Part shown: positions 4,955 through 64,000 of the stretch, one piece after another
Layout of the letters: each line of letters starts with the position of its first letter
Position numbering within the stretch: position 1 is the first letter of the stretch
IMG/VR virus record: IMGVR_UViG_3300028833_000073
Span: 94,306-158,305 of that record
Reading direction: 5' to 3' (one strand)
Length of the DNA: 64,000 nucleotides
DNA from: a virus
Lineage: Duplodnaviria > Caudoviricetes
Program-made: the position numbers and the translations under genes
Notes under the pieces: model-generated
What the model was told of the DNA's origin: nothing
The model's database searches: none
The model's input: the letters and a program-made list of their open reading frames with translations, nothing else

Positions 4955-5136
4955 ACAAACAATCTCCTACCAATACGGTAGGAGATTTATTTGCTAAGTT
5001 ATTATGTGAGAATTATATGAAAGGAGGTAATGCACATGAAAAACCATATGCGTAATGTGAGATAATGTTAGTTACGCAAACAAGTGTAACCGAAGTGTAC
5101 CCAAAGGAAAAGCTGAATTGCCCACAAGCTTACCTT
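4955..5136 (-). ncRNA. Putative sRNA, ACACUUGUUUGCGU-hairpin family (long form with anti-SD/AUG segment)
   Basis: Minus-strand AACA-aaataa-TA at 5147-5136; core 14-mer at 5074-5087; ends at hairpin 4961-4987. Confidence 0.6.
4961..4987. terminator. Bidirectional intrinsic terminator hairpin
   Basis: AATCTCCTACC-aatac-GGTAGGAGATT with T-rich tails on both strands. Confidence 0.75.
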
Positions 5137-5170
5137 ATTATTTTGTTATGACCAAAAAAATATATAGACA

Positions 5171-5198
5171 CATATTATATATGTGGTGGTATTGGGTA
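5171..5198 (+). promoter_or_regulatory. Early promoter plus conserved 16-nt leader GTGGTGGTATTGGGTA (copy 1 of 5)
   Basis: CATATTAT-atat-GTGGTGGTATTGGGTA; same leader at 33785-33770(-), 39201, 40471, 42251. Confidence 0.8.
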
Positions 5199-5226
5199 AA
5201 ATTCTAATAGAAAGGAAGGAATAACA

Positions 5227-6353: not shown

Positions 6354-7499
6354 ATGTATGGTACAATGGCAAGAAAAGTTATTAAGCTTACTCCGGAGCA
6401 GGTTAAAGCTCTTGAGGAACAGATCAAGAAGATTGAAGGATTCGATGTAAAAGTCGAAGAGAAGAATGAGAAACCTGATGAGTTTATCAATGTTTCTGAT
6501 GTTACAATGGATACTTGTAGGTCTATCAAAGTACCTGGTTGTAACGATAGCGCTCTTAGGAATGATATCTATGCAAACGCATTTGATATTGATAAGCACA
6601 ATTATGACTTTATCCATACTTTGCGTGATAAGTCTGATTATATGAATAAGGCAATGAAGTATTTTGAGAATGAGTATGAAACTACTATCAATGATTCTGG
6701 TATTGGTAGTTGTGATGTTACTGTGGAGGATAAGTTTAACTCTTATCCCAGTGGATGTATGCTTGGAGCTGTAATTCCTGGTATCAATAGTGCTATTAGG
6801 TTTGTCGAGGCCAATAACTATTTCACTAGGGATATCTCTCCTGATGAGAAGCAGTCTATTATCAATTCTCATAATCTGAACTTCAATACCACAGCAAATA
6901 GTATTATTCGTACTATGGTAGATGATATTCAGAATGCTTTCTCTGGGCTTATCGTCAAACATGCTCTTACACAGGAGGAGATGGATAATCTTCTTAAGAC
7001 TAAACAAAGGCTGAATACGCTTCTTAAGCAAGATGAAGTTGTTAATTTTACGCCGTCTGATATTTCTAGCTATTCTGGTTGGACTATGCCTACTAATAGT
7101 ACGGAGCTCTTCACCTTGTTTACCACTCTTAGGAACTTCCATAGTGTTACTAACTATAATGACGAGGATCAGATCATTATTAGTGGTAATACTTTGAACT
7201 ACTATGTCGAGTGTATCTACAATTATGCAACGACATCGTTCTTCCAATTCCTTCGTTACAGGTTTGCTGATAATGAGTATAAGGAAGACATTATGTCTCG
7301 TATCTCTCTTGAGTTTGAGACGAACTTTGGATTTGAGATGCGTCGTTATATTGCAGCTACTCTTAAGGAGATTGCAAGGATTGCGACTATCTATCTCATG
7401 AATCTCAAAGTCCTTAATAGTTATCCGAAGACGTGTGAAAAGTATGAAGAGAGTAATCGTTTGATCAATCCTCCTTTCCATTATAGGCCTGGATTCTGA
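6354..7499 (+). CDS. Hypothetical protein (C-terminal RLINPPF motif)
   Basis: 381 aa ORF, GAAAGGA RBS, phage codon usage. Confidence 0.8.
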   Translation: MYGTMARKVIKLTPEQVKALEEQIKKIEGFDVKVEEKNEKPDEFINVSDVTMDTCRSIKVPGCNDSALRNDIYANAFDIDKHNYDFIHTLRDKSDYMNKAMKYFENEYETTINDSGIGSCDVTVEDKFNSYPSGCMLGAVIPGINSAIRFVEANNYFTRDISPDEKQSIINSHNLNFNTTANSIIRTMVDDIQNAFSGLIVKHALTQEEMDNLLKTKQRLNTLLKQDEVVNFTPSDISSYSGWTMPTNSTELFTLFTTLRNFHSVTNYNDEDQIIISGNTLNYYVECIYNYATTSFFQFLRYRFADNEYKEDIMSRISLEFETNFGFEMRRYIAATLKEIARIATIYLMNLKVLNSYPKTCEKYEESNRLINPPFHYRPGF

Positions 7500-7551
7500 G
7501 CAAACAAAATCTTAGAGATATATTATAACTAGGAGAAAGGAGGAAAGTGTA

Positions 7552-8271
7552 TTGGTTTTCTACAATAATAACCAAGGTAACTTTCCTGCTTCTCCTATAG
7601 GTAATCAGGCAATGGCATCACAGCCATTGCCTATGATTCCTGTGGGACAGCAGCAGGGTTATTCAACGTACAATGGGTACTTTAACCCATGGGAAATACA
7701 AAGGAGGCAAGATGAACAACTAAAGAATTATAATAACAATATCAATATGCAGATTGATATATATAAGAGACTATATATCAATTCATGTAAGAACCTGGGC
7801 ATATATGTGGATGAACAAGCAGTAGATGAGTACTATAATCAGTTTAGACCATCGACTACTAGTACATATGATATGCTCAAGAAACAAAAGGAAATAGCCG
7901 AGGAACAAAAGATAGCAGAAGCTGTACAGAGGGCCAATGGTCAAGGGTCTATGTTAGCTAATGCCCAGATGAAGATCTGGTATGATCAAGAAGAAAAGAA
8001 TCAAAAAATATATGAAGGTAAGTCATTGCAAGAACAGTATGAAGCATTGACAGTGGCTGCCTTCGATATGAGAATGGATGAGGCTAAGAGACAGAATAAG
8101 AATATGAAAAATAGCTATAACAATAGTGCATATCAGAAGCTTATAGCATCTAATGGTCAAGGACTATTCTCTACCAATATAGATGACATGGAAGTTACCT
8201 TACCCAATAACTTGTCTGGTACTTATCAGTCTAGAAGGGCTAGGTTCCTTGCAGCAGTCTTAGGGAAGTGA
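7552..8271 (+). CDS. Gln/Asn-rich hypothetical early protein
   Basis: TATATTAT promoter near 7520, AAAGGAGG RBS, TTG start. Confidence 0.75.
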   Translation: MVFYNNNQGNFPASPIGNQAMASQPLPMIPVGQQQGYSTYNGYFNPWEIQRRQDEQLKNYNNNINMQIDIYKRLYINSCKNLGIYVDEQAVDEYYNQFRPSTTSTYDMLKKQKEIAEEQKIAEAVQRANGQGSMLANAQMKIWYDQEEKNQKIYEGKSLQEQYEALTVAAFDMRMDEAKRQNKNMKNSYNNSAYQKLIASNGQGLFSTNIDDMEVTLPNNLSGTYQSRRARFLAAVLGK

Positions 8272-10037
8272 TGTCTATGAAGTTTGATCCATTAGAGTTA
8301 TTCTATGCTAAGCAAAAGACGAATGCATTGAATTTCGACTTTGAAGGATTAATGGGTCCTATTATTCCCAATCTACTTCCACCAAGTATAGATTCATATC
8401 TATATAGCTTAGCTACCCATCCAAAGTATTCATCTAAAATAAAGATGAAGTTTGATTTGATAGACAGAGCTGTAAATGATTATGGATTCGTATTGATGGG
8501 AAGAGGGACCAATCGTTGCATCTACAAACATCAGATTGATGGTAGGATAATGCTTAAGATAGGGTTTGATAGAGCAGGTATTACAGATGCTTATAAAGAA
8601 CTCTATAACATGAACTATCTTAAGCCATTTGTTACAAAGTGTTTCGATGTAAGTCCCACTGGTACTATAGGTTTATTCGAGAGAGTCATTCCGATAACCT
8701 ATAAGGATGAGTTTATATCTGTAGCTGGGGATATATTCGATGTGATAACCAAGTGTTTCATCGGTAAGTATATCCTTGCAGATATAGGTACTAAGTTTTA
8801 TATGAACTGGGGGATAAGAAAGGGATTTGGTCCAGTTCTTCTGGACTATCCTTTTATGTATCTTCTAGATGGAAGAAAGTTACATTGTATCAATCAAGTT
8901 CCGTCACCAATTGGCATGGTAATGTGTAATGGCTTAATAGATTATGATGAGGGTTTCAATCACTTGAAGTGTACTAAGTGTGGCAAGACCTACTTTGCAT
9001 CTGATCTAGCCAAAGAAAACAAAGAAGGCCAATTGGAAATATATGGTGCAAGATTAGGAGGAAAGATGAAAATGTCTACAGGAGAGTATTACATCAATGG
9101 AAAGAAAGTAAGTGAGGAAGAGGTAATGGCTCGTTATTTCGGAGATAAGTCCAATAACAATTATCCGGATAACAATAGGGTATTTGAAGCTGCACCACCT
9201 CCAGTTCCGCCCAGTTATGAAAGGAAGAGGGCAGAAGCTGAGAGGAAGATGAGACAGCAGCAGAACAATACTCCTCGTCAGAGCCAGCCTCATAATAACA
9301 ATAATAGGAATGATCGTCCTAAGGAAACAAGAGTAGAGTATATGTATCGTTACGCTAAGTATACTCTTAAGCGTATGATAAAGGCATCTCGTAATGAACT
9401 CGATCTTGGTAATATCGCATATGCTCTTGTTGATCTTATCATGAACACGAATAATAGTAGTGGTCAGAAAATTGAGAGGAAGGAAGTAATAGCAAAAGCT
9501 CAAGAGCTTGCTCAGGAAGCATTGAATGAGTTTGTTGAGGATTGTAAGAGGTTGAATAATAATCCTACACCTCCTAATAATCCTCGTCCTCAGCCGAATC
9601 CTGCACAAGCAAAGATGCAGGAGAATGTAAAGAAGACAGTAGTAGAACCTACACAGACAGCAACATTATCTCCGGCTCAATCTGTCGCTATTGTACCTGA
9701 GATTGTTGAAGCCGAAGTAGTAGATGATTCTCCTACTGAAGAGGATGATGCAGAGATTCTGAGTGAAGTAGAACAGCTTCATGCAAATGATGCTGATCAG
9801 GTAAATGATATCGTTGATGCTATTGATAATCTTAGTACCGCTGTAGAAGAAGGTAAGAAGATTGCTGAAGCAAACAATGGTATCTCTCCTACTACTCAGG
9901 AAGGATTGAATAGGATTAAGCAGATCAATGACATGGGTAATAATGCACCCCATGTAAAGAAGGAAGAAGCAAAGCCGGCACCTAAACCAAATCCTCCTCA
10001 GAAGATTCCTGGAACAGGTATGGCTTTCACTTTCTAA
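8268..10037 (+). CDS. Protein-kinase-like N-terminal domain, Cys zinc ribbon and low-complexity C-terminus
   Basis: GRGTNRCIYK...MLKIG, ADIG..FYMNWG, PVLLDYP; CTKCG; Pro/Asn/Gln-rich and acidic tail. Confidence 0.6.
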   Translation: MMSMKFDPLELFYAKQKTNALNFDFEGLMGPIIPNLLPPSIDSYLYSLATHPKYSSKIKMKFDLIDRAVNDYGFVLMGRGTNRCIYKHQIDGRIMLKIGFDRAGITDAYKELYNMNYLKPFVTKCFDVSPTGTIGLFERVIPITYKDEFISVAGDIFDVITKCFIGKYILADIGTKFYMNWGIRKGFGPVLLDYPFMYLLDGRKLHCINQVPSPIGMVMCNGLIDYDEGFNHLKCTKCGKTYFASDLAKENKEGQLEIYGARLGGKMKMSTGEYYINGKKVSEEEVMARYFGDKSNNNYPDNNRVFEAAPPPVPPSYERKRAEAERKMRQQQNNTPRQSQPHNNNNRNDRPKETRVEYMYRYAKYTLKRMIKASRNELDLGNIAYALVDLIMNTNNSSGQKIERKEVIAKAQELAQEALNEFVEDCKRLNNNPTPPNNPRPQPNPAQAKMQENVKKTVVEPTQTATLSPAQSVAIVPEIVEAEVVDDSPTEEDDAEILSEVEQLHANDADQVNDIVDAIDNLSTAVEEGKKIAEANNGISPTTQEGLNRIKQINDMGNNAPHVKKEEAKPAPKPNPPQKIPGTGMAFTF

Positions 10038-10103
10038 TGAGACTATAACCAGTATATAAGCCCTATCATATGATAGGGCTTGTCTGGTTTGAAATGAGGT
10101 GTA

Positions 10104-10784
10104 ATGATGTTTAAAGGGGATATCTTTATAACGGATGATTTCCAACTTGCAACTACTCTTAGCTATGATAGTAGATATAGAGTTTTTGCATTGATGGATA
10201 ACTATGAACTAGAGTTTGGTAAGAATAGTAATGTTATTGGTATGCCGTTCTTACTTCCTCCATACAATGCATTAGAGGAAGAGAATATTGGTAATCTTCA
10301 AAATTTTTATAATATTTACTATCAGCACCTGGCTAGCGCTGAAGCAGATAATTATATCACTACATTACTTACAGGGCTCTATAGAGGTTTCAATATCCTT
10401 TTCTATGTTCCTAAGGATGAAGCCCAACTAGAGTTCAGTAAAGCACTGTTGAGATATATCCATGATGTATTTGGAGTCACTATTGGTAGCAAGGATAACA
10501 ACCAATGTGGTTTCAATGTAGCCTTTGAAGACACAGTAAGAATCAAGATGTACTTCTATGGTAATATTCCTGCTATGGATCTAGTGCAGAACATAAAGAG
10601 CAAGATCATGGATCCATTTATCTGTGATCGTATGTGTAATGATCTCGGTATTAGTCCTGGTAATAATTCTGTAGAAGCTATAGATCAATATATTAGAAAC
10701 TATAGGAATAGCCAGAATGTAGTACAAGTACCAGCTCCTAGGAAACTTATAGATCCTCCATTTAAGATAAGAGGATTTGAGTGA
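10104..10784 (+). CDS. Hypothetical protein (C-terminal RKLIDPPF motif)
   Basis: GAGGTG RBS; possibly a distant paralog of the next gene (LxPP...Y..YL...A, NIxxx pattern). Confidence 0.8.
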   Translation: MMFKGDIFITDDFQLATTLSYDSRYRVFALMDNYELEFGKNSNVIGMPFLLPPYNALEEENIGNLQNFYNIYYQHLASAEADNYITTLLTGLYRGFNILFYVPKDEAQLEFSKALLRYIHDVFGVTIGSKDNNQCGFNVAFEDTVRIKMYFYGNIPAMDLVQNIKSKIMDPFICDRMCNDLGISPGNNSVEAIDQYIRNYRNSQNVVQVPAPRKLIDPPFKIRGFE

Positions 10785-10793
10785 GGTGCAATC

Positions 10794-11333
10794 ATGATCT
10801 TAGTAATGAATAGTGAATTCTTCATTCAGAATATAAAGAATGATATGAAGATTATGGATAATTCATTTGTTCTTAGCTGGGATTCTCAGTTAACTCCAGA
10901 GGCAGCAGGATGTCCTATTTGGAGTAGTAGGCATCTTGTTCCTCCAGAGGGAATTAGTAATGACTATGATTATACTAATTACTTATACTTCAATGATAAG
11001 GCTATGGAGTTAATAGCTATCATTGGGTATATGATTAAGACGAATAACATAGTTATCATTCTCTCTAATGGTAATTATGCTGAAGACTTCCTATACATGT
11101 TCTTGAAGTTTATCCAGAACAGATATGGAATAGTGTATAGAGATGTGAAGTGTCTTGAAGATATTCCTGAAGTTCCAGGAGATACAGATAGCTTTAGCAT
11201 TCAAGGACTCTATAACTTCAATGCCTATGACAATAATAGAGTTGTTAGGTATATAGAGTCACTTAAGATATCTGATCCTGACTTTAGGATGTTCTTTGAA
11301 CAGAATCTGAATGAGAAAGCAGCAGAGCTATGA
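10794..11333 (+). CDS. Hypothetical protein
   Basis: GAGGTG RBS, operonic. Confidence 0.75.
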   Translation: MILVMNSEFFIQNIKNDMKIMDNSFVLSWDSQLTPEAAGCPIWSSRHLVPPEGISNDYDYTNYLYFNDKAMELIAIIGYMIKTNNIVIILSNGNYAEDFLYMFLKFIQNRYGIVYRDVKCLEDIPEVPGDTDSFSIQGLYNFNAYDNNRVVRYIESLKISDPDFRMFFEQNLNEKAAEL

Positions 11334-12122: not shown

Positions 12123-12154
12123 TCCTCACCATAACGGTGAGGATTTTATTTTTT
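12123..12154 (+). terminator. Intrinsic terminator
   Basis: TCCTCACC-ataac-GGTGAGGA plus T-tract. Confidence 0.8.
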
Positions 12155-12156
12155 GC

Positions 12157-12258
12157 ACTAAATACCTCCCATCCGAAGATGGGAATAGTATCTAGCTCAA
12201 CGCAAACAAGTGTTGATTACTTTAGAAAGGATCGCTTACAGAAAAATACGTGCTGGCT
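12157..12258 (-). ncRNA. Putative sRNA, hairpin family, array unit 1
   Basis: AACA-taaaag-TA at 12269-12258; core 12200-12213; C(UUCG)G-capped 3' hairpin. Confidence 0.65.
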
Positions 12259-12284
12259 ACTTTTATGTTAGTACTATATCAAAG

Positions 12285-12383
12285 ACTAAATACCTCCCAT
12301 CCGAAGATGGGAGTAGTATCTAGCTCAACGCAAACAAGTGTTGATTACTTGAACATATTCCTGCCGAAAAAAATTCTTTGCAT
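12285..12383 (-). ncRNA. Putative sRNA, hairpin family, array unit 2
   Basis: AACA-taaaaa-TA at 12394-12383; core 12328-12341; C(UUCG)G-capped 3' hairpin. Confidence 0.65.
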
Positions 12384-12409
12384 ATTTTTATGTTAGCACT
12401 ATATTAAAG

Positions 12410-12513
12410 ACTAAATATCTCCCATCCAAAGATGGGAGTATATCTAGTTCTAACGCAAACAAGTGTTAGATGAACGAACCAAAGTTATGATTTCTCACCC
12501 ATGAGTAATCCCC
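12410..12513 (-). ncRNA. Putative sRNA, hairpin family, array unit 3
   Basis: AACA-atataa-TG at 12524-12513; core 12453-12466 with changed but paired stem; C(UUUG)G-capped 3' hairpin. Confidence 0.65.
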
Positions 12514-12526
12514 ATTATATTGTTAT

Positions 12527-12637
12527 AAAGAAATTAAAAGTTACAGGACCTCCATCCTGCAACTTTTAATTTTTGGTGTATCAGCAATGACTAAAATAAC
12601 CACAGAGAAGAACTATCATTTTCTGCTCTATAGCTAT
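12527..12637 (-). ncRNA. Putative ~110-nt sRNA without the family core
   Basis: AACA-ctatag-TA at 12648-12637; long hairpin at 12531-12572. Confidence 0.4.
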
Positions 12638-12646
12638 ACTATAGTG

Positions 12647-13138
12647 TTACCAATCTGTATCTATATCAACTTCTTTTTCTTTTTTAGCCTTTGGTTTAAA
12701 GTCCTTATGAGTAACATTCTTCTCTGAGTTAAAGTTGGCTACATATACAGTTACTAAGTAGAAGATCTTCTCTGCTAGTAATTCAGTAAAGTACTCTTCT
12801 GAATAGCATAGATATATCTTCTTCTTAAGGGTAGTTGATAGTCTATTTGATACAATATTGGTTATATCCTTACGAATAGTATCTTCTCTTTCTTTATTGA
12901 TGAAATCAAGTCCTGTATCAGGAACTATATTATACATCACATAGTCATTAAGACAGTCATCAAGAAACTCATTTATGAAATTATTCACATCTTCCTTTGA
13001 GTCTTTATATCTAAAATCAGATATAGCTCTAAACTCATCGGTCTTTGTTGCACTATCTAGAACGTCTATATATCTCTTAAGTAGATACAATGCAACTATA
13101 GCTAGAATTACATAGATATATTCAAGCAACTTACTCAC
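12647..13138 (-). CDS. Membrane-anchored hypothetical protein
   Basis: N-terminal hydrophobic helix YIYVILAIVALYLL. Confidence 0.75.
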   Translation of the reverse strand: MSKLLEYIYVILAIVALYLLKRYIDVLDSATKTDEFRAISDFRYKDSKEDVNNFINEFLDDCLNDYVMYNIVPDTGLDFINKEREDTIRKDITNIVSNRLSTTLKKKIYLCYSEEYFTELLAEKIFYLVTVYVANFNSEKNVTHKDFKPKAKKEKEVDIDTDW

Positions 13139-24117: not shown

Positions 24118-25499
24118 TGAAACCAAAGATTCTTGAGGATAGAATTTTTGCTTCACATAATGTTAGTGTTGGTAACCTAGTAGAGTTTAATAACTCTACT
24201 GGTACTGAGTTAAAAGATTCTAGTATCAAATCAAATGATGTGCTAAAACTAGTATCTATGATTAATAATCTTGTACAGCATCTAGCTAATGATACTAACC
24301 ATGTTTCTGATGAAGATAGAGCTAGATGGGATAAGAGAGAAGCAGTAACTGATCACATGGCAGATAAGTCTATCCATGTATCATCTCAAGATAGAGAATA
24401 TTGGAATGAGAAGGAGTCAGTAGCTGGTGCTCAAGCTAAAGCTGATGCTGTTATGAGTCAAGCTAATAAGCATATCTATGACTCTAATGTACATATTACT
24501 CTTGCAGATAAGAATAAGTTAAATAATGTATACTCTAAGGAAGAGATTGAAGCTCTAATCTCTACACTACAGACAAATAACCAATGGAAAGAAGCAGTCA
24601 ATACATATGAAGATTTATATACTACTTACCCAGATCCACTAGATGGTTGGACAGTCAATATCCTTGAATCTGATCTTACTTATAGATGGACTGGTGATGA
24701 ATGGATTGCAATTTCAGCTAACTTTATTCCAGTAGCTACTCAAGAAGTAGATGGTAAACTATCTAAGTATGATAAGAGAAAACTAGATGGAATTGAAGAT
24801 GGAGCTAATAGATATGTACATCCATCTGATCAGTATACTCGACATGTAACTGATAACCAGATTGCTATATGGAGTGGTAAGGCTGATAATAAACTAGCAG
24901 ATTATCTTAATGATGGTCTACTTACCAAGGAAGATAAAGTAAAGCTAGATAACATCGAGGAATTTGCTAATCATTATGAACACCCAGGTACTCATAGTGC
25001 TCGTATGATTGAAACAACAGAAGACTTAGCATTCATCTCTGAGGAAGAGAGAACCTATTGGAATGCTAAGGCTGATAGTAATAGGGCTACTATCTTCAAA
25101 GATGGTATTATGTCTAATGAAGATAAGAAGAAGTTAGATGGTATTGCAGAAAAAGCTAATCTATATACACATCCAGCTACTCATAACCCAGATATTATAG
25201 CGGAGAATGCAGATAAACAATTTGTATCATCTCAGGATAAAACAGTATGGAATGCAAAGTTTGGTAGAGGAAACTTCATTAGAGGTTCTGCTGTACTTAA
25301 TGGTACTGCTGGAACTAAGATTGTACATTCACTATTTGATATGACAAATTCATATAGTGTAATGATTACATTAACCTCAGCAGTAACACCAGATAGAACT
25401 GGTCAAATCTATGTAGTCAAAGATCCTAATGCTATCTTTGTATATTCTACTGGAGGTAATATCACAGACTCATTTGACTACTTGATCATTGAGAAGTAA
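24117..25499 (+). CDS. Fibre-like virion protein with HV(S/T)xxDRxxWNxK and DGxMSxEDKxKLDGI repeats
   Basis: Repeats visible in translation; related to the genes at 51386-54633. Confidence 0.7.
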   Translation: MKPKILEDRIFASHNVSVGNLVEFNNSTGTELKDSSIKSNDVLKLVSMINNLVQHLANDTNHVSDEDRARWDKREAVTDHMADKSIHVSSQDREYWNEKESVAGAQAKADAVMSQANKHIYDSNVHITLADKNKLNNVYSKEEIEALISTLQTNNQWKEAVNTYEDLYTTYPDPLDGWTVNILESDLTYRWTGDEWIAISANFIPVATQEVDGKLSKYDKRKLDGIEDGANRYVHPSDQYTRHVTDNQIAIWSGKADNKLADYLNDGLLTKEDKVKLDNIEEFANHYEHPGTHSARMIETTEDLAFISEEERTYWNAKADSNRATIFKDGIMSNEDKKKLDGIAEKANLYTHPATHNPDIIAENADKQFVSSQDKTVWNAKFGRGNFIRGSAVLNGTAGTKIVHSLFDMTNSYSVMITLTSAVTPDRTGQIYVVKDPNAIFVYSTGGNITDSFDYLIIEK

Positions 25500-27582: not shown

Positions 27583-27629
27583 AAAAAATAAAAGATTTGA
27601 CAAAACAGAAAAGCCCTCCGAAGAGGGCC
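27583..27629. repeat. 47-bp exact direct repeat containing minus-strand terminator (copy 1)
   Basis: aaaaaataaaagatttgacaaaacagaaaagccctccgaagagggcc; UUCG loop on minus strand. Confidence 0.9.
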
Positions 27630-28088: not shown

Positions 28089-28167
28089 TATTAATTTCCT
28101 CCTTTTAAACACATCATATTCATTTCGGCACATCTATAATATATGCCTATTTTTGAATTTGGTTAGG

Positions 28168-28214
28168 AAAAAATAAAAGATTTGACAAAACAGAAAAGCC
28201 CTCCGAAGAGGGCC
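28168..28214. repeat. 47-bp exact direct repeat / terminator (copy 2)
   Basis: Identical to 27583-27629. Confidence 0.9.
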
Positions 28215-31976: not shown

Positions 31977-32248
31977 CATGTTTGTTCACGTAAGATGGTT
32001 AAACTTACGCCGTCTTAATGTAAAGACTGCTATATGTCACCATATAGATCAGACTATATCACATACTCATATGAGTATCTTAGTATTTCGAGTCACCAAT
32101 TGACCCTACGTCTTTCGACTAGTCGTTGAACCTTCACATCCTTTCTAGGATTAGCTCGGCTGCTGATTGTCTTATCATATGATAAGAGTTTCCAGCAATT
32201 AACTAAGTTTTTCCATATAGAGTCACCTCTATAGGCCCCGCGCAGTTC
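31977..32248 (-). mobile_element. Group I intron (272 nt, ORF-less) inserted in NRNP|TL
   Basis: P1 CCCU/GGGG; P AAUUGCUGGAAA, Q AAUCAGCAG, R GUUCAACGACUA, S GAUAUAGUCU; terminal G at 31977. Confidence 0.92.
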
Positions 32249-33700
32249 AGGGTTACGATTAATTATGAATGGGATCCCGTTTTCGTTTGCTTTGATAATG
32301 TAGTTAACGATCTTCCATACACGATCATCATAATCCGTATAGGCTTTATCAAAGACTGCTTTAGCAGTATGCATAGCCATACCATAAGTATTATGGAGGA
32401 TATTGATAATCGCATGTTCAAGAAGCTTAACCAATGCCTTAAACGGCAACTTGATCTGATCAGTTCTAAGAGTCCAGTTAGGTACAATAACAGCTCTGCA
32501 ACTGAAATTATACCGGCCACCATACAGTGACCTAATAATACCTTTCTTAGAACTCATGATCTTGATTACTTCATCATAAATCTCCATGAGATTAAACTGA
32601 AGATCATAGAGTAATTGATTGCGGGTCTTCTTAGACCTGCGTCCTTTTATTGATTCTTTATGATTGATGATAGCTCCGAGCATAGCCATGATATTAAAGT
32701 ACTTATTCGTATCCTGGAATGCAAACTTATCACCATTAAGATGATATGGACGCAAGAGAGTAGTAAACACAGGAATACTATGAGTGAATACTTTTTCTCT
32801 ATCGTGCATGATATCATCATATACATCTTTCTTATTTGGATTCATCTTAAGATAATAGTCCATGATCTCATCGAAGTTCTCATAGAACCCCAACATTCCA
32901 TAATCATAGTACTTATCTAAATCTCCTCTTTCTACTTGGATAGAAAATCCATTCTCATCCTTTTCATCCTTTGGATCAAGAATACCTGTGAGTGCTGCCT
33001 TACCAATAAAGAACTCAATAGACTTATACAATCCTGGATGTATCACATAGTCATCATCCAGAATAATCCATCCAGTAATCTTGAAATCATCATTCTTCTT
33101 CACTACCTTCTTACCACAGATAGGACAGATAGTTCCTTCATTCTGTTGGTTCTTAGTAGCTCCACACGGACAAGTATATCTAGTTCCATAAGAACTAGCA
33201 TCATCAAATGTAGGACCAAACAAAGGAGAATAGATTGAGTTAGGTTCTTTGATATCCTTCTTAACTCCTTGAGGTTTCTCGATACGGATTCCTTTACCTT
33301 TACCAAAGTCTTCCATCCGTTCTTCATCAAGATTGATTCTTTCAATCCATGTTCTATATTCATATTTATTACTGTGAGGATACGATGAGTCTTTATCATC
33401 CACTGGAATGGGAGCTTTAGCTACTATTGCTTTTACTACTTCATATGGATTTGCAAGAGATTCTGCTAATCCAGTTCTAAGAAGATTATTAACTTCTTCT
33501 TTCCTTTTATTGAAGTTGCTTATTCCCCTCCATTTATCCTCAACTTTGAAATTCTTATAGTTGGATCCTTCAGTGGGAACAACCATAGAAAAGTGTCTTT
33601 CCTTTGGATAGTCCTTTAGCATTGATTCTCTTTGCTCTCCATGGAAATACTCTATTTTGCTTCCAACTGTAGGTACCACCTTAGAAAACTTCTTTTCCAT
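32249..33700 (-). CDS. RNAP beta' N-terminal subunit, exon 1 (spliced product 605 aa; probably non-virion RNAP)
   Basis: CPCG...CPICG zinc finger, KKGIIRSLYGGRYNFSCRAVIVP, INRNP; early promoter. Confidence 0.92.
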
Positions 33701-39171: not shown

Positions 39172-39225
39172 AAACTTTTTCTTAGCGACATATTATATAT
39201 GTGGTGGTATTGGGTAAATGTTTAA
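39172..39225 (+). repeat. 54-bp exact direct repeat: early promoter plus leader (copy 3 of 5)
   Basis: Identical to 40442-40495. Confidence 0.9.
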
Positions 39226-40441: not shown

Positions 40442-40495
40442 AAACTTTTTCTTAGCGACATATTATATATGTGGTGGTATTGGGTAAATGTTTAA
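40442..40495 (+). repeat. 54-bp exact direct repeat: early promoter plus leader (copy 4 of 5)
   Basis: Identical to 39172-39225. Confidence 0.9.
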
Positions 40496-42188: not shown

Positions 42189-42238
42189 TCAGGTTATAAT
42201 GTGTCGTAAAAAATCAAGACCAAAAAAGATTTCAACGA

Positions 42239-42266
42239 CATATTATATATGTGGTGGTATTGGGTA
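42239..42266 (+). promoter_or_regulatory. Early promoter plus conserved leader (copy 5 of 5)
   Basis: CATATTAT-atat-GTGGTGGTATTGGGTA. Confidence 0.8.
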
Positions 42267-42309
42267 AATATCGCCAAAATAACACAATCTATTTAAGGAG
42301 GAAGATCTT

Positions 42310-47375: not shown

Positions 47376-47464
47376 TCTCAAGCTCCTGGAGAAATCCAGG
47401 AGCAAATTTATTTTCGTAAATATATTATAACTGGGATATAAGGAATAATGCTATTTAGAGGTGA

Positions 47465-51385: not shown

Positions 51386-52207
51386 GTGAAAGGGGATGTT
51401 ATAATGGCCTGGAATCCAGATAGTGATGGAATCTCCTTTAGCCAACTTGATAAAGAGTTAAGAGACATTATCAATTCTAAAGTTGGCTCTGATGATTATA
51501 GATCTTTTGCAGATTCATTTAGTAGACATCAATCTGATCATACTATTCATCTTTCAAGTACAGATAGAGAGCATTTTCAATATGCCTATGATAAGATAGT
51601 TCAAATAATAGATACTGAGATATCAGAAGCCATTACTGATATCACTAGCTTCAATGCTAGATTTTCCAATCATGTCAATGATAGTACAGTACACTTCACA
51701 GATATTGAAAGAAATAGATGGAATAATAACTTCACTACTATGGCTAATAATATTACTATTCTAAGTAATAGTATTAATAACATAGTGAGCATGTTTGATG
51801 GTTATACAGATGCTACCCAGTTTAATGAACAGGTAACATCATTAGCTAACCATCTTATAGATAGAAATGTCCATATAACTACATCAGAAAGAGCATCATG
51901 GAATGGTACTGAAGCTAGAGCTAATAACTACTCTGACAATAAACTAGCCAAACATGCCACTGATGATTCATTACATCTTAAAGCAAATGAAAGATTTAAT
52001 TGGAATCAGCACAAGGATAATAGTAAGATTCATTTAAATGACAGTTTTAGGGAACAGATTAATACCCACTTAGCTAATGCAATGGTACATGTTACATCGG
52101 CAGATAAGACTAAGTGGAATGGTATATTAAACGAATTGGCTACAATATCCTCTGATATAGCTACACTTAAAGCTCAAGTGTTAGCTTTGCAAAATAAAGT
52201 AAAATGA
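51386..52207 (+). CDS. Fibre-like virion protein with H(I/V)TxxERxxWN repeats
   Basis: Repeats in translation; late promoter GACT-agtaag-TA; start may be ATG 51404. Confidence 0.7.
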   Translation: MKGDVIMAWNPDSDGISFSQLDKELRDIINSKVGSDDYRSFADSFSRHQSDHTIHLSSTDREHFQYAYDKIVQIIDTEISEAITDITSFNARFSNHVNDSTVHFTDIERNRWNNNFTTMANNITILSNSINNIVSMFDGYTDATQFNEQVTSLANHLIDRNVHITTSERASWNGTEARANNYSDNKLAKHATDDSLHLKANERFNWNQHKDNSKIHLNDSFREQINTHLANAMVHVTSADKTKWNGILNELATISSDIATLKAQVLALQNKVK

Positions 52208-52220
52208 GGAGGTATATATA

Positions 52221-54026
52221 ATGAGACATTTTGATGAAAACTTGGATCTTATCTCATTGCGAGAAATAAATAAACCTCTAGCTGAAGAGCTAGAAAAGGT
52301 TATAGCACATATTAAGAAAGATTCATTCCATGTTACCCCAGAAGATAGAATTAGATGGGATAATAAGCTAGACTCTACTTCAGGAGATCCAGCTACACAT
52401 GAAACAAATGGATTAATGTCAGCTCAAGATAAACTTAAGCTAGATGGAATCCAGTATAATGCTAATTTCTATGAGCATCCTAAGGTAGAAGTAGAACCAG
52501 GTACATACAATACAGTTACAGTAGATAGATATGGTCATGTTATAGATGCATCTACTGTTGATGAAGTAGAGAATTCTAGAAAATTAGGTGGTAAGCTAGC
52601 AGCAGAGTATGCTCTACTTACTAGCCCAATATTTAAAGGAACTCCTACATTAGCAAATACTCCTACTAAAGATGATACTAATGCTATTGCTAATGTAAGA
52701 TTTGTTAAAGAGTATGTGAATGAGATTACTCTTAATGACTATGGATTTACTGCTGAAGATATCAATAGATGGAATAATAAGTGGGATAGTACTAATGCTC
52801 CACTAGCTACTACATCTTCAAATGGTATCATGTCTAAAGCTGATAAGAATAAGCTAGATCAGCTATATACCAATCTAAATTCTGTTAATAAAGATGATAT
52901 TGATAAGTGGAACTCATATGAATCATTTAATATTGATGATATCCCTTTGGCTACAGCAATGAATAATGGTTTAATGTCAAAGGAAGATAAGGATAAGTTA
53001 AATGGTCTTAGTAACCCTGGATATATTGTTAATCAAGATGATGTAGATAGATGGAATAATAAGTGGGATGCAACTAATGCTCCTGTTGCTACTGAAGGAC
53101 AGAATGGTATTATTACCATTGAAGATAGATTATTCCTAAACAAACTAGTTCCAGCATCTAGTATTACAGAGATTGATATTAGATCTTGGAATAATAAGCT
53201 AGATGATATAGCCAATGCTACACAAGAGACAGATGGTCTAATGTCTGCTAACGATAAGAAGAAGTTAGACCAACTATCAGAGTCTTATGTAGAAATCACA
53301 GAGGAAGATATTAATAGGTGGAATAATAAGCAAAGTGCTCTTAGTCTAGTTAGTCAAGAACATGATGGAATAATGTCATCTGTAGATAAGACTAGACTAG
53401 ATAACATGTATACTAACTATGATATTACTGTACAGAAAGTAACTAAAGCAGAACAAGATCTTAAGACTCTTAGTGAAACACTAGCTAGTAGTGAGAAGAA
53501 TGGTCTTATGTCATCTGAAGATAAGACTAATCTTGATTCACTATATAACAAGTATAGTACAGGTGTATCTGTTAGTCAAACAGATGTAAATAGATGGAAT
53601 GAAGCTGTCCCTCCTGAAACAGTTCTTAATGCTATTCTTAGAATTCAAGATCTTTCCTCTAGGGTATTCAAGGCTGAAGACTATCTAAGATGGAAAGAAT
53701 ATACTGATGAAAGTGGTACTACAATTCAGACTCCAGAAGAGTTTGAAGAAGTTCCATTGACAGCAGATGATTTTAGAAACATTGAGGAATTGCTTAATTC
53801 ATTAGAATCAAGAGTAGATACTATTGAAGAGCACATTGAGTGGGATAAAATGATTGATAATGACGGTAATCCTATTGAAGACACTACTGAACCTACAACA
53901 GATCCTACAGAACCTACTACCGACCCATCAGATAATCCAACTACTGATCCAGTAGATAACCCAGATGATGATGACGAACATAAGTCTTTATTTGATGGCG
54001 ATGACACAATAGATGATGATATTTAA
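52221..54026 (+). CDS. Fibre-like virion protein with repeated D(I)NRWNNK...AT...NG(L/I)MSxxDKxKLD units
   Basis: About 7 repeat units; acidic TTDP-repeat tail. Confidence 0.72.
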   Translation: MRHFDENLDLISLREINKPLAEELEKVIAHIKKDSFHVTPEDRIRWDNKLDSTSGDPATHETNGLMSAQDKLKLDGIQYNANFYEHPKVEVEPGTYNTVTVDRYGHVIDASTVDEVENSRKLGGKLAAEYALLTSPIFKGTPTLANTPTKDDTNAIANVRFVKEYVNEITLNDYGFTAEDINRWNNKWDSTNAPLATTSSNGIMSKADKNKLDQLYTNLNSVNKDDIDKWNSYESFNIDDIPLATAMNNGLMSKEDKDKLNGLSNPGYIVNQDDVDRWNNKWDATNAPVATEGQNGIITIEDRLFLNKLVPASSITEIDIRSWNNKLDDIANATQETDGLMSANDKKKLDQLSESYVEITEEDINRWNNKQSALSLVSQEHDGIMSSVDKTRLDNMYTNYDITVQKVTKAEQDLKTLSETLASSEKNGLMSSEDKTNLDSLYNKYSTGVSVSQTDVNRWNEAVPPETVLNAILRIQDLSSRVFKAEDYLRWKEYTDESGTTIQTPEEFEEVPLTADDFRNIEELLNSLESRVDTIEEHIEWDKMIDNDGNPIEDTTEPTTDPTEPTTDPSDNPTTDPVDNPDDDDEHKSLFDGDDTIDDDI

Positions 54027-54039
54027 GAGGTGATATACC

Positions 54040-54633
54040 ATGGCATTCGATAGGAATAACCTCCCAGGTGTATCAGGACAATCTACTAGATTAAATAATC
54101 AAGATGAATCTAGGGCTAATAGATCTGAACTAAGCTCTCATGTAGAGAATGATAGCAGACATGTATCTATTCAAGATAGAGTATATTGGAACTCATTAGA
54201 GAAGATACTGAAAGATTACGTTGATTATAGATTCAGATCAATCATTGGTATATTTGACTTCGGTGAACTAGAGATAGATAATAAGCTATCTCTTGCAGAT
54301 ATAGTTCTTAAGACCAATAAAGATAGAATCAGTGATATCAACTCTCTTAGAGCTGAATTCATATCAGCATTAGAAACTAATGTGAATAATCTTATATCAT
54401 CAGATGAAGATGAAAGAACAGCTAGAATCTCTGGTTTAGAAGAGATGAGAGAACGCATACAAGATCTCTTAGGTAAAATAGAGCAAGAGATAGAAGATAG
54501 AAAAACAGATGTTATCAATGAGGGTACTGCTAGAGCTACAGCAGATACTGAAGAGTATAATGCTCGTATTAATGCAGAGAAGGAGCTTAGAGATAGAATT
54601 GAAGCTCTTGAACATCCCAATCCTGATCTATAA
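54040..54633 (+). CDS. Coiled-coil virion-type protein
   Basis: HVSIQDRVYWN and ExxAR heptad repeats. Confidence 0.65.
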   Translation: MAFDRNNLPGVSGQSTRLNNQDESRANRSELSSHVENDSRHVSIQDRVYWNSLEKILKDYVDYRFRSIIGIFDFGELEIDNKLSLADIVLKTNKDRISDINSLRAEFISALETNVNNLISSDEDERTARISGLEEMRERIQDLLGKIEQEIEDRKTDVINEGTARATADTEEYNARINAEKELRDRIEALEHPNPDL

Positions 54634-54757
54634 TTATAGAGGTACCTATTGGTACCTCTTTTTGCTGACCAAATTTTAAAATAAAGACATATTATATATA
54701 AGATCATTAGTTATAATGATCTTAACTATGTTGTTAAGAAAGAAAGGATGTGTTATA

Positions 54758-59526: not shown

Positions 59527-59659
59527 CGTAGAGGTAGGGGTAATATAGCTTGATATTCGCCACTAGTAGTCTGATTTGCATTCGATTCAAAGACTACTGA
59601 TAATTAGAGAAGATGGTTGGTGGCCATCTTCCTTTTTATCACTTTTGTAACACTTTAGT

Positions 59660-59815
59660 AAGAGAATGCGAATTCATTCTCCTTCTTCTGGACTTAGGTA
59701 CACTTGTTTGCGTGCCTAGCTAATTTTGGGATTTTTTCATTGTTGATCTTCCTTTCTTAACATTATAATCAATTACCTCTTCCTTATACCCTACCGTAAG
59801 GTAGGGTATCTTTTT
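59660..59815 (+). ncRNA. Putative sRNA, ACACUUGUUUGCGU-hairpin family (long form with anti-SD/AUG segment)
   Basis: AACA-ctttag-TA at 59649-59660; 5' hairpin GAGAAUG..CAUUCUC; core 59700-59713; terminator 59786-59815. Confidence 0.65.
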
Positions 59816-59854: not shown

Positions 59855-60955
59855 ATGAGAGGTACGTTTGTTGAAGCTCATATAGCAGATATACACTTTG
59901 GAGCATTAGATCCTAGTGTACAGTATAAATTATTACACGAGCAATTTATTAGTAAGATTATAGATATACCATTGGATATAATCTCCATTAATGGAGATTT
60001 GTTTGATAAGAAGTTTATGGCAAACTCAGATGTCATAACTTATGCAACTAAGTTCATAGCTGACTTAGTAGAGATATGTAAGATGAAAGGATCTACTCTG
60101 ATTCTTATAGAAGGAACAGAGAGTCATGATGCACATCAATTGAATAGCTTCTATCATTACAATGGATTAGATGCTGATGTAAGAATAATAGAGAGTGCAA
60201 ATTTCATAAATGTAAGAGGGAAAGAGATACTATGTTTACCTGAAGAGTATGGTAAGGGATATGAGTATTATAGATCTCTATTTGCTAATAGAGAGTATGA
60301 TGCTTGTTATCTCCATGGTACTATTGTAGGTAGTATCTTTGGAAAGTCTGTACCGAATCTTAATAGTGATAGAGAACCTATATTCTCTATAGAGAATTTC
60401 TGGAGATGTAAAGGTCCTATCATATGTGGTCATGTACATGTGGCTGGTTGTTATAATAGTCACATCTACTATAGTGGAAGCCCATTAAGATGGAGATTTG
60501 GAGAAGAACAAGAGAAAGGATTCTTCTTACTCTGTCATAATTTGGATACTCAAGAATACTATATGCATTTCAATCCAGTGGTATCATTTAGATATGATAC
60601 ATTGGATTTAGATGAGATACTTCTTAGTGATCCTAAGGATATAATCAACTACCTAGACAATCTCAAAGCTAATGGAGTTGATCATATCAAGTTAAAGGTA
60701 AGGAAGTACACTGATGTACTACCGATACTTAGAGATTATTACAGTACTAAGAAATGGATGGTGATAGAAGATAAGAGTAGATTAGAGAAGGTTATGGAAG
60801 AAAATGATAATAACCTTAAACAGTATGAAGGATTATCATTCTTGAATGATCCTAGTATAGATGAATATACTAAATTCGTGATGTATGTAAACCATTACGA
60901 AGGAGAAGGATTCATTACTATAGAGAAGCTTAAGGAGTTGATTACTAATGTCTGA
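59855..60955 (+). CDS. SbcD/Mre11-like metallophosphoesterase nuclease
   Basis: ADIH, GDLFD, GTESHD, HG, GHVH, YSGSP motifs. Confidence 0.88.
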   Translation: MRGTFVEAHIADIHFGALDPSVQYKLLHEQFISKIIDIPLDIISINGDLFDKKFMANSDVITYATKFIADLVEICKMKGSTLILIEGTESHDAHQLNSFYHYNGLDADVRIIESANFINVRGKEILCLPEEYGKGYEYYRSLFANREYDACYLHGTIVGSIFGKSVPNLNSDREPIFSIENFWRCKGPIICGHVHVAGCYNSHIYYSGSPLRWRFGEEQEKGFFLLCHNLDTQEYYMHFNPVVSFRYDTLDLDEILLSDPKDIINYLDNLKANGVDHIKLKVRKYTDVLPILRDYYSTKKWMVIEDKSRLEKVMEENDNNLKQYEGLSFLNDPSIDEYTKFVMYVNHYEGEGFITIEKLKELITNV

Positions 60956-63068: not shown

Positions 63069-63873
63069 AATCAAACCATTTAATTTCATTGGGATGGAAA
63101 AAGATGGATTAGGTAAGAATGAACCTGACCTTACTTATATTGAGATCGAAGGAGCTAATTGTGTAACTGTACTTACCCATACTCCTAATCCTGATCTTGT
63201 TGTTGCAGTAGCAGCTAGTACTTGCTACTCACATGATGATCCTATTACTCTCTATGAAAAACTAGAAGCTGATCCAGAGAGAATGAAGAGGGTTATTACA
63301 AAATGTGTCAATAGTGGACATTTGTCCGTTCTTGAACATGCTTCTATCACCTTTGCTATCTCTAAAGTATCTAGGTCATTCTTAGCTCAGATTAGTAGGC
63401 ATAGAATTGGCTTCTCAATATCTGTTCAGAGTCAACGCTATGTGAATCTAGCTGAGCTTAAGGGTGATGATTTTATCTATCCTCCTATCAATGGTAGTGA
63501 ACCTGATGTGATGCACAACTACTTCAAGGACAAGTATAAGGAGTCTGTAGATTGGTATAGATTCCTACAGAATGAAGGTATTCCTAATGAGGATGCTAGG
63601 TATGTACTACCAGAAGGTACACCCACTAATATGGTAGTAACTATGAATCTTCGAGAGATTCTTCATTTCTGTGGTCTTCGTTGTTGTTCTCGTGCTCAGT
63701 ATGAGATTCGTAAGGTAGCTAGTATCATTGCTAGGTATGCTAAGCATATTGCTCCTATCTCTTTGGCTAAGTGTGGTCCTAAGTGTGAACAGCTAGGATA
63801 CTGTAATGAAGATAAGAGCTGTGGTAGGAAACCAATTCTTGGTGAGCTTATGGAAGCCTACTATAATAGCTAA
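63058..63873 (+). CDS. thyX: Flavin-dependent thymidylate synthase
   Basis: GHLSVLEH, SRSFLAQISRHR...SVQSQRYV, EDARYVLP, NLRE..HF..LR; GAGGAG RBS favours ATG 63058. Confidence 0.93.
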   Translation: MKNEIKPFNFIGMEKDGLGKNEPDLTYIEIEGANCVTVLTHTPNPDLVVAVAASTCYSHDDPITLYEKLEADPERMKRVITKCVNSGHLSVLEHASITFAISKVSRSFLAQISRHRIGFSISVQSQRYVNLAELKGDDFIYPPINGSEPDVMHNYFKDKYKESVDWYRFLQNEGIPNEDARYVLPEGTPTNMVVTMNLREILHFCGLRCCSRAQYEIRKVASIIARYAKHIAPISLAKCGPKCEQLGYCNEDKSCGRKPILGELMEAYYNS

Positions 63874-63939
63874 TTATTTCCGACCAAAAATACTTTCAGC
63901 GATATATTATAGATGGGAGAAAGGAGGTGAAAGTATTTA

Positions 63940-64000
63940 TGATTAAGAAGTTTTTACTCAGTGTGGCATTGATCTTGTCCGCATTGGTATCTGTTGGAAT
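63940..64000 (+). CDS. Partial gene beginning with a signal peptide
   Basis: Early promoter near 63903, AAAGGAGG RBS, MIKKFLLSVALILSALV; truncated by window end. Confidence 0.65.

Follow-up and report, generated by a model that had tools for sequence, protein, structure and literature searches.

A predicted small-RNA gene upstream of SbcD and its capped-hairpin family in an uncultured giant AR9-like phage

The window analyzed here, a stretch of 64,000 nucleotides at the end of a viral contig of 158 kb (G000), contains a short unit, termed c5, that begins with a promoter motif, ends with a terminator, and shares a 14-nt sequence with other places in the window. The question raised by this locus is what such a unit produces, on which of its strands it is active, and what its repeated and variable parts might do. 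The c5 unit is bounded by the terminator of the upstream gene (59609-59631) and by an SbcD-like gene that starts at 59855. The sole plus-strand open reading frame at the locus (59613-59723) begins ahead of the predicted RNA start, and c5 is an ORF-less unit that extends from promoter to intrinsic terminator. On the basis of its sequence, c5 is most likely a protein-less gene for a predicted RNA of ~155 nt in an uncultured giant AR9-like phage.

Layout of the c5 unit and its promoter class

The elements that an earlier note on this DNA had read from the letters of c5 are all present (Table 1). They comprise the AACA-ctttag-TA motif, a 5' hairpin of 7 bp, an exact complement of an RBS and AUG, and a terminator composed of a stem and a T-run. 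Downstream of the core, both long forms in the window contain UUUUUCAU, a spacer, and CCUUUC, as had been proposed, with a spacer of N10/11, and AUCCUUUCU is found in array unit 1. In the centroid fold of c5, firm pairing is confined to the 5' hairpin, the family hairpin, and the terminator, and the anti-RBS tract is mostly unpaired. Read on the opposite strand, this tract is an orphan RBS followed by a six-codon frame, MKKSQN-stop.

Table 1. Features of the c5 unit, its siblings in the window, and repeats and an intron region mentioned in the text (window coordinates)
Feature	Position	Strand	Basis or remark
c5 unit	59649..59815	+	most likely a protein-less gene for a predicted RNA
c5 late-type promoter motif AACA-ctttag-TA	59649..59660	+	sequence; match to AR9 late consensus; predicted RNA start A59660
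c5 5' hairpin, 7 bp, 6-nt loop	59662..59681	+	c5-specific; MFE and centroid fold, hairpin scan
c5 family hairpin, variable stem UAGGU/GCCUA (one U.G pair)	59695..59718	+	17-copy alignment, fold, covariation
c5 14-mer	59700..59713	+	inside c5 family hairpin
c5 invariant tip	59701..59712	+	inside c5 family hairpin
c5 anti-RBS module, pyrimidine-rich, single-stranded tract	59729..59757	+	exact complement of SD, spacer, AUG, and A-run
c5 second pyrimidine tract UUACCUCUUCCUUA, directly before terminator	59773..59786	+	sequence; unpaired in fold; function only putative
c5 intrinsic terminator, 10-bp stem, 4-nt loop, T-run	59786..59815 (stem 59786-59809)	+	fold, terminator scan
Sibling c1	4955..5147	-	
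c1 promoter	5136-5147	-	
c1 tip hairpin	~5074-5087	-	
c1 anti-RBS tract	~5017-5047	-	
c1 terminator	~4960-4990	-	
Array of three short siblings	12152..12524	-	terminator hairpin ends each unit
Array promoters	12258-12269, 12383-12394, 12513-12524	-	AACA-N6-T(A/G) motif
Array 14-mers	12200-12213, 12328-12341, 12453-12466	-	exact matches
TGACCAAA-N14-ATATATTATA repeats	1795-1857, 2177-2216, 5143-5207, 7494-7553, 39172-39225, 40442-40495, 42222-42275, 47396-47455, 54660-54699, 63878-63937		
Group I intron and adjoining β'-like polymerase match	32030-32258, 32384-32521	-	intron: Rfam, 73.3 bits

The promoter motif of c5 matches that of phage AR9, in which dRNA-seq defined a late promoter, AACA-(6N)-TA/G, whose last base is the transcription start, and an early promoter with an AT-rich TATATTAT-type box (PMC5312081). 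In this phage, AACA-N6-T(A/G) is ~2-fold enriched 10-120 nt upstream of gene starts relative to five control motifs, and the best named-phage matches of the SbcD-like neighbor are AR9, PBS1, and the Staphylococcus, Listeria, and Yersinia jumbo phages of the AR9 group. Because of both the motif match and this kinship with AR9, the promoter of the earlier note can be assigned to the AR9-group late type, with a predicted start at A59660, and AACA-N6-TA at c5 would thus belong to the late promoter class. The β-like and β'-like RNA polymerase Pfam matches in the genome are weak and fall below cut-offs. A homologue of the AR9 promoter-specificity subunit (gp226) was not found in the 64%-complete contig, and the matches in a relative, G001 (E 1e-4), and in a second contig of this phage, G002 (see below), are weak. 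The only gathering-level Rfam match in the window is a group I intron, which is located outside the family units and adjoins the β'-like polymerase match; a polymerase gene of the phage therefore seems to be interrupted by an intron.

Other repeated or structured stretches are also observed in this genome. The early-type promoter motif recurs in repeat families D3, D4, and D9, and the repeat families based on TGACCAAA-N14-ATATATTATA, several of which have a leader in common, fit the AR9 early-promoter type. At G000 10830-11080, an early-promoter leader contains a strong RBS, and an arginine-rich mini-ORF of 13 codons and a structured, GC-rich stretch precede the next gene. Three tandem ORF-less late-promoter units are located at L006:720-1330 (G000 ~85300-85900, 8 kb before the window), directly behind a 2113-aa β-like polymerase ORF; these units are GC-richer and strongly structured and have no Rfam match. 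Within the window, an exact 47-nt repeat containing a GC-rich hairpin is found at 27583-27629 and 28168-28214, and 84 nt beside it at 28091-28174 are 96% identical to G002:53034-53117 and form part of a genome-dispersed repeat. Numerous short diverged direct repeats in two long ORF regions (24288-25259 and 52100-54198) resemble the repeated peptide motifs of fiber-like proteins.

Sibling copies and the capped hairpin

The 14-mer inside the c5 family hairpin is found in five exact copies in the window, where 0.13 are expected and none of 100 shuffles reaches five. In addition to c5, these copies belong to a second long form, c1, and to an array of three short siblings, the units of which are 125-128 nt long and each contain a promoter and a terminator. 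In all five copies, the 14-mer starts at +41 to +50 from the A/G of AACA-N6-T(A/G) on the same strand. The array is headed by a fourth late-promoter unit (window 12540-12649, minus strand), which starts with AACA-ctatag-TA directly after the stop codon of a 163-aa gene and has its own terminator and no capped hairpin.

Further copies are observed outside the window. A sixth is located on the same contig, 8 kb before the window (L006:1501-1514), and has U-A instead of A-U as its outermost pair. It sits at ~+130 in an early-promoter unit (L006:1357-1620), at the 3' end of a 35-codon ORF. This ORF has a strong RBS, and its stop codon lies within the 3' arm of the hairpin stem. Two more copies are located on viral contig G002 (57.8 kb), which is a separate IMG/VR virus entry. 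Since G002:6-134 overlaps G000:158177-158305 (window 63872-64000) at 99% identity, G002 is the continuation of the same genome, which rules it out as an independent phage; together, the two contigs span ~216 kb. The genome-wide count called for in the earlier note thus extends from five copies in the window to a sixth on the contig and two on G002, and this phage has at least eight predicted siblings, six on its contig and two on the continuing contig. The same note had proposed a single polarity of the core with a promoter 40-50 nt upstream and had named random orientation of further copies as the outcome that would favor a DNA site. All copies are sense to promoter and terminator, and the polarity holds; the spacing, which is 41-50 nt in five of five window copies, is not universal, because the sixth copy sits at ~+130 in a unit with an early promoter.

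Searches for the family elsewhere were less productive. A scan of viral contigs with the 14-mer alone gave mostly unrelated single matches and one real locus, L088; a tandem 12-mer scan matched only unrelated high-GC coding repeats; and scans for promoter plus 14-mer in viral and metagenome contigs returned chance matches and one conserved coding site without a stem. A blastn search against cultured phages gave no match for the c5 or array regions, and model R1 found nothing significant in G001, AR9, Listeria LPJP1, Staphylococcus S6, or Bacillus BpSp. Nine copies are contributed by relatives that were obtained by protein searches with neighboring genes: a counterpart of c5, a counterpart of c1, and a seven-unit array. 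An SbcD protein identical to that of this phage is also encoded on a contig of 296,790 bp.

The resulting alignment, A4, comprises 17 hairpins, 8 from this phage and 9 from relatives. Each hairpin is capped by a 12-nt tip, CACUUGUUUGCG, in which 10 of 12 positions are invariant; at each of the remaining two, a single copy deviates. The internal A.C mismatch of the tip, described beforehand as a fixed part of a constant hairpin, is present in 17 of 17 copies. The stem below the tip is free to vary, with all four Watson-Crick pair types observed at several positions, and 87.5% of the cells in the stem alignment are paired. The covariation score is 0.758, compared with 0.157 for shuffles (0 of 500 reach the observed score) and 0.07-0.18 for slid controls, and the family hairpin is found in the MFE structure of 13 of 16 units. 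This alignment gives no evidence of pairing inside the tip, which stays constant even where two C-G pairs are presumed.

The alignment also distinguishes between the two strands. Across the 17 copies, the variable stem contains 73 Watson-Crick pairs, 7 G.U pairs, and no A.C pairs. Since a G.U pair turns into A.C on the other strand, the ratio of seven to zero indicates that the promoter-sense strand is the one that folds. A U.G pair in the c5 stem had been put forward as fixing the strand; this pair is present, but the argument is weak on one copy, because the invariant A.C is itself a G.U pair on the opposite strand, and the strand assignment holds with 17 copies. That the element would act at the RNA level, on the promoter-sense strand, is well supported by the covariation and the G.U count.

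The same data bear on whether the hairpin could function as DNA, either as a single-stranded DNA hairpin or as a promoter-like site for the phage polymerase. The tip and its preceding base read (A/T)ACA-N6-TG in several copies: the three window array copies, with AACA-CTTGTT-TG, match the late promoter exactly, and TACA is found in six others. However, 8 of the 17 copies fit neither form, and a promoter requires neither a fixed N6 nor a covarying flanking stem. With every copy sense to promoter and terminator and the G.U count favoring one folded, transcribed strand, a DNA-level element is very improbable. A peptide-coding reading of the tip was also considered and rejected, as the frames across the tip differ between copies; array unit 3, in addition, differs from units 1 and 2 by a 1-nt indel, which argues against coding.

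Positional counterparts and the anti-RBS tracts

Among the relatives, L225 (SbcD 71% identical in amino acid sequence) has a c5 counterpart in the same place upstream of SbcD, with one change in the tip loop. Comparison of the two loci shows that GAUCCUUCC-type tracts are kept in L225, that CAU is absent, and that the 5' hairpin of c5 is not present. In L233, whose neighboring protein is 86% identical, a c1 counterpart is found together with a seven-unit array where this phage has three units. Three islands are kept in the c1 counterpart, namely the tip, CCUCCUUU, and the terminator; the rest has diverged, and CAU is lost. Each unit of the L233 array (9900-10711, minus strand) is composed of a late promoter, an unrelated 5' segment of 30-49 nt, the hairpin, and a terminator, and 5' segments turn over completely between these phages with an 86% identical neighboring protein. 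One unit of this array has the loop UAGUUU, and in one the outermost pair of the tip is C-G.

In more distant relatives (L229, L231, L232, L235, and G001), the corresponding positions are occupied by ORF-less late units that have similar pyrimidine tracts and lack the capped hairpin. The anti-SD tract is kept in the positional counterparts in L225, L229, L231, L232, G001, and L235, as is the c1 tract in L233, and CAU-N8/9 is kept ahead of the tract in three distant units, two in L235 and one in G001. Because the anti-SD tract is kept even in relatives that lack the hairpin, it is the older feature of these positional counterparts. The capped hairpin was gained in the lineage of this phage, L233, and L225.

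In this phage, four of four long forms contain the complement of a strong SD, spacer, ATG, and A-run. There is some variability in the placement of this module: in one long form, the anti-RBS tract is located before the hairpin rather than after it. The short forms differ, in that the anti-SD tract is absent in two of the three window array units, and most array units are without one. Of the orphan strong RBS motifs, two of three on this contig and two of two on G002 are the antisense of family members. Alternatively, the functional strand could be the opposite one, with strong RBSs and mini-ORFs (leader peptides or decayed gene starts) beside the hairpin. Perfect SD-spacer-ATG-AAA motifs in all four long forms would fit such a reading, as would the G.U pair that the invariant A.C forms there. 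The mini-ORFs, however, range from 6 to 20 codons (6, 9, 9, and 20) and are unrelated to each other, one copy has RBS and hairpin in the reverse order, and the ATG is lost in the closest counterparts, L225 and L233. Moreover, no promoter motif is found upstream on that strand, the terminator T-runs fit the other strand, and the seven stem G.U pairs would turn into mismatches, all of which makes a function of the opposite strand barely credible.

If the tracts of the promoter-sense RNA pair with RBSs, particular targets might stand out, and the duplex energies do not single any out. For the four anti-RBS tracts against all predicted RBSs in 216 kb, the energies are no better than those of generic anti-RBS controls, in which perfect antisense sequences of RBSs were paired with off-targets, with the fraction of controls doing at least as well as the tract being 0.16 for c5, 0.70 for c1, and 0.93 and 0.33 for the G002 copies. 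The c5 tract pairs better with RBSs behind early promoters (-18.0 versus -14.0 kcal/mol, p=8e-4). This early-gene bias is not consistent family-wide, two other units having a nominal p of ~0.02 and the remainder showing none. The c5 tract resembles the complement of the phage consensus RBS, AGAAAGGA..AAUAAUG, and not that of one particular gene. The 5' variable segments of the array (30-49 nt) have no match on either strand in 216 kb of phage DNA. A search of bacterial genomes with a 22-nt RBS pattern gave one match, in a Saprospiraceae MAG of 54% GC, which is taken as chance because the match ends exactly at the pattern edges.

The proposal that the family silences translation initiation is therefore upheld in part. 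Retention of the anti-SD tract in the counterparts speaks for it, whereas the anti-AUG is lost in L225 and L233 and the best RBS partners are at control level. Silencing of translation is plausible and fits the conserved anti-SD tracts, and the c5 RNA, given a tract that mirrors RBSs, would probably dampen translation.

Known systems compared and a proposed role

Among the known systems compared, the closest analogues of the family are the streptococcal csRNAs. Each streptococcal genome contains two to six CiaR-dependent sibling csRNA genes, which encode terminator-ended RNAs of 51-202 nt (PMC3091779). Similar to the units described here, the csRNAs are sibling genes behind one type of promoter, end in a terminator, and have poor overall similarity; they also share anti-SD and anti-AUG (CAU) sequences that are unpaired, together with a single short stretch of conservation, which in csRNAs is located beside the first stem-loop. 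The main differences are that csRNAs are bacterial and CiaR-dependent, that their conserved stretch is an unpaired nonamer rather than a capped hairpin with a fixed A.C, and that they lack tandem arrays of units whose 5' segments are unrelated.

A second comparison is provided by AR9 itself. The AR9 late start 75478(-) is experimentally mapped; the other Table S3 rows compared all have lower read counts, and in the entries of that study considered here it is classed only as antisense to g090 and is not treated as an sRNA (Lavysh et al. 2017, PMC5312081). Like c5, it has an AACA-N6-TA late promoter, and its short RNA has an anti-SD CCUCC close to the 5' end, with a strong hairpin downstream. 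Unlike c5, it has no capped hairpin (model R1 gives nothing significant), sibling family, or array. By analogy, this start is the only experimental support for a late class of anti-SD RNAs. Other AR9 loci with orphan RBSs and antisense late motifs do not resemble the family units.

The LhrC1-5 genes of Listeria monocytogenes are tandem sRNA genes, each with its own promoter and terminator, whose RNAs pair with RBSs through pyrimidine-rich motifs. The family shares with LhrC the tandem genes, the individual promoters and terminators, and the pyrimidine-rich motifs. In LhrC, however, the copies are alike over their full length, whereas here only the hairpin of ~24 nt is common, even between close phages. 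In Rfam 15, which includes csRNA, LhrC, RsaE, and CRISPR repeats, the family hairpin has no match at the gathering threshold, and matches at E<=10 are at chance level only.

The hairpin can also be compared with protein operators. The coat-protein operators of MS2 and PP7 and the boxB element of lambda are small stem-loops with a fixed loop, a fixed stem irregularity, and a free stem sequence, and small hairpins with a fixed mismatch are typical of such operators. The family hairpin has the same fixed loop, fixed irregularity, and freely varying stem; it differs in that no sequence or model match is found, the weak MS2 matches lying on the other strand over terminator hairpins. Given this likeness, the RNAs could be decoys or sponges in which the hairpin copies the ligand of an RNA-binding protein or nuclease (a host defense, an RNase, or a regulator) and the late arrays titrate it. 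The multi-copy arrays with a promoter for each unit, the change in unit number from three to seven between relatives, and the restriction of the common part to a small structured motif that has a fixed mismatch are in agreement with titration. Against this stand the lack of a similar hairpin in Rfam, the failure of any candidate protein to emerge, and the conserved anti-SD tracts, which decoys leave unexplained, and we consider titration unlikely.

CRISPR and solitary-repeat guide arrays join a variable segment to a constant structured handle and change rapidly in unit number. The arrays described here resemble them in both respects and differ in having a promoter and terminator for each ~125-nt unit and no fixed spacer length, the variable segments being 30-49 nt. 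No cas genes are seen, no repeat model matches the hairpin, and the arrays do not classify as CRISPR-like. That the family is a programmable RNA system, with guides of 30-50 nt and a fixed handle bound by one phage effector protein, is quite improbable; if true, the phage could silence chosen messages of its host or of rival phages without CRISPR-Cas.

Sibling sRNA families offer another explanation of the invariant tip, since their invariant part is usually the seed. The tip could then pair with one conserved host or phage RNA (5'-CGCAAACAAGUG-3' or part of it), with the many copies raising the dose and the anti-SD tracts being secondary. Consistent with a seed, the tip is invariant even at its two presumed C-G pairs, the 5' segments are wholly replaced between close phages, and the YUNR U-turn motif, a feature of fast-pairing antisense loops, is matched by CUUG on the 5' side of the loop. 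The complement of the tip, however, is found nowhere else in 216 kb of phage DNA, and its 8-nt core is found only twice in the G000 contig, which is below chance. Pairing of the tip with a single RNA is thus a possible explanation, held with low confidence.

The reading that we prefer, to which we assign about an even chance, is that the family encodes late trans-acting base-pairing RNAs that cover RBSs and that all contact one partner through the fixed tip. From the sequence comparisons we infer transcription, RBS pairing, and a tip partner as follows. The phage's own late (non-virion) RNA polymerase would start the RNA at A59660 from AACA-N6-TA, and the intrinsic terminator would end it at ~155 nt. 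The open pyrimidine tract would bind the ribosome-binding sites of mRNAs and lower translation initiation, a mode of action that has been proposed for streptococcal csRNAs. The fixed tip, CACUUGUUUGCG, would be the common contact for one partner, protein or RNA, that is used by all siblings. The earlier note had suggested recruitment of a protein by the hairpin; the invariant tip could just as well be a seed for RNA pairing or a decoy.

Sibling anti-RBS sRNAs are of an already known kind, and the new part is the capped-hairpin family with its variable arrays. To our knowledge, the small RNAs of virulent jumbo phages are almost unstudied. With 17 covarying hairpins, a strand test, positional conservation, and arrays that vary from three to seven units, the family provides an unusually clean comparative case for a phage sRNA family. 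RNA tools might also use the tip as a compact tag. A single partner of the fixed tip, if there is one, would provide a new handle on RNA control in these phages. Should the RNAs shut RBSs late in infection, they would do at the RNA level what repressor proteins such as T4 RegA do.
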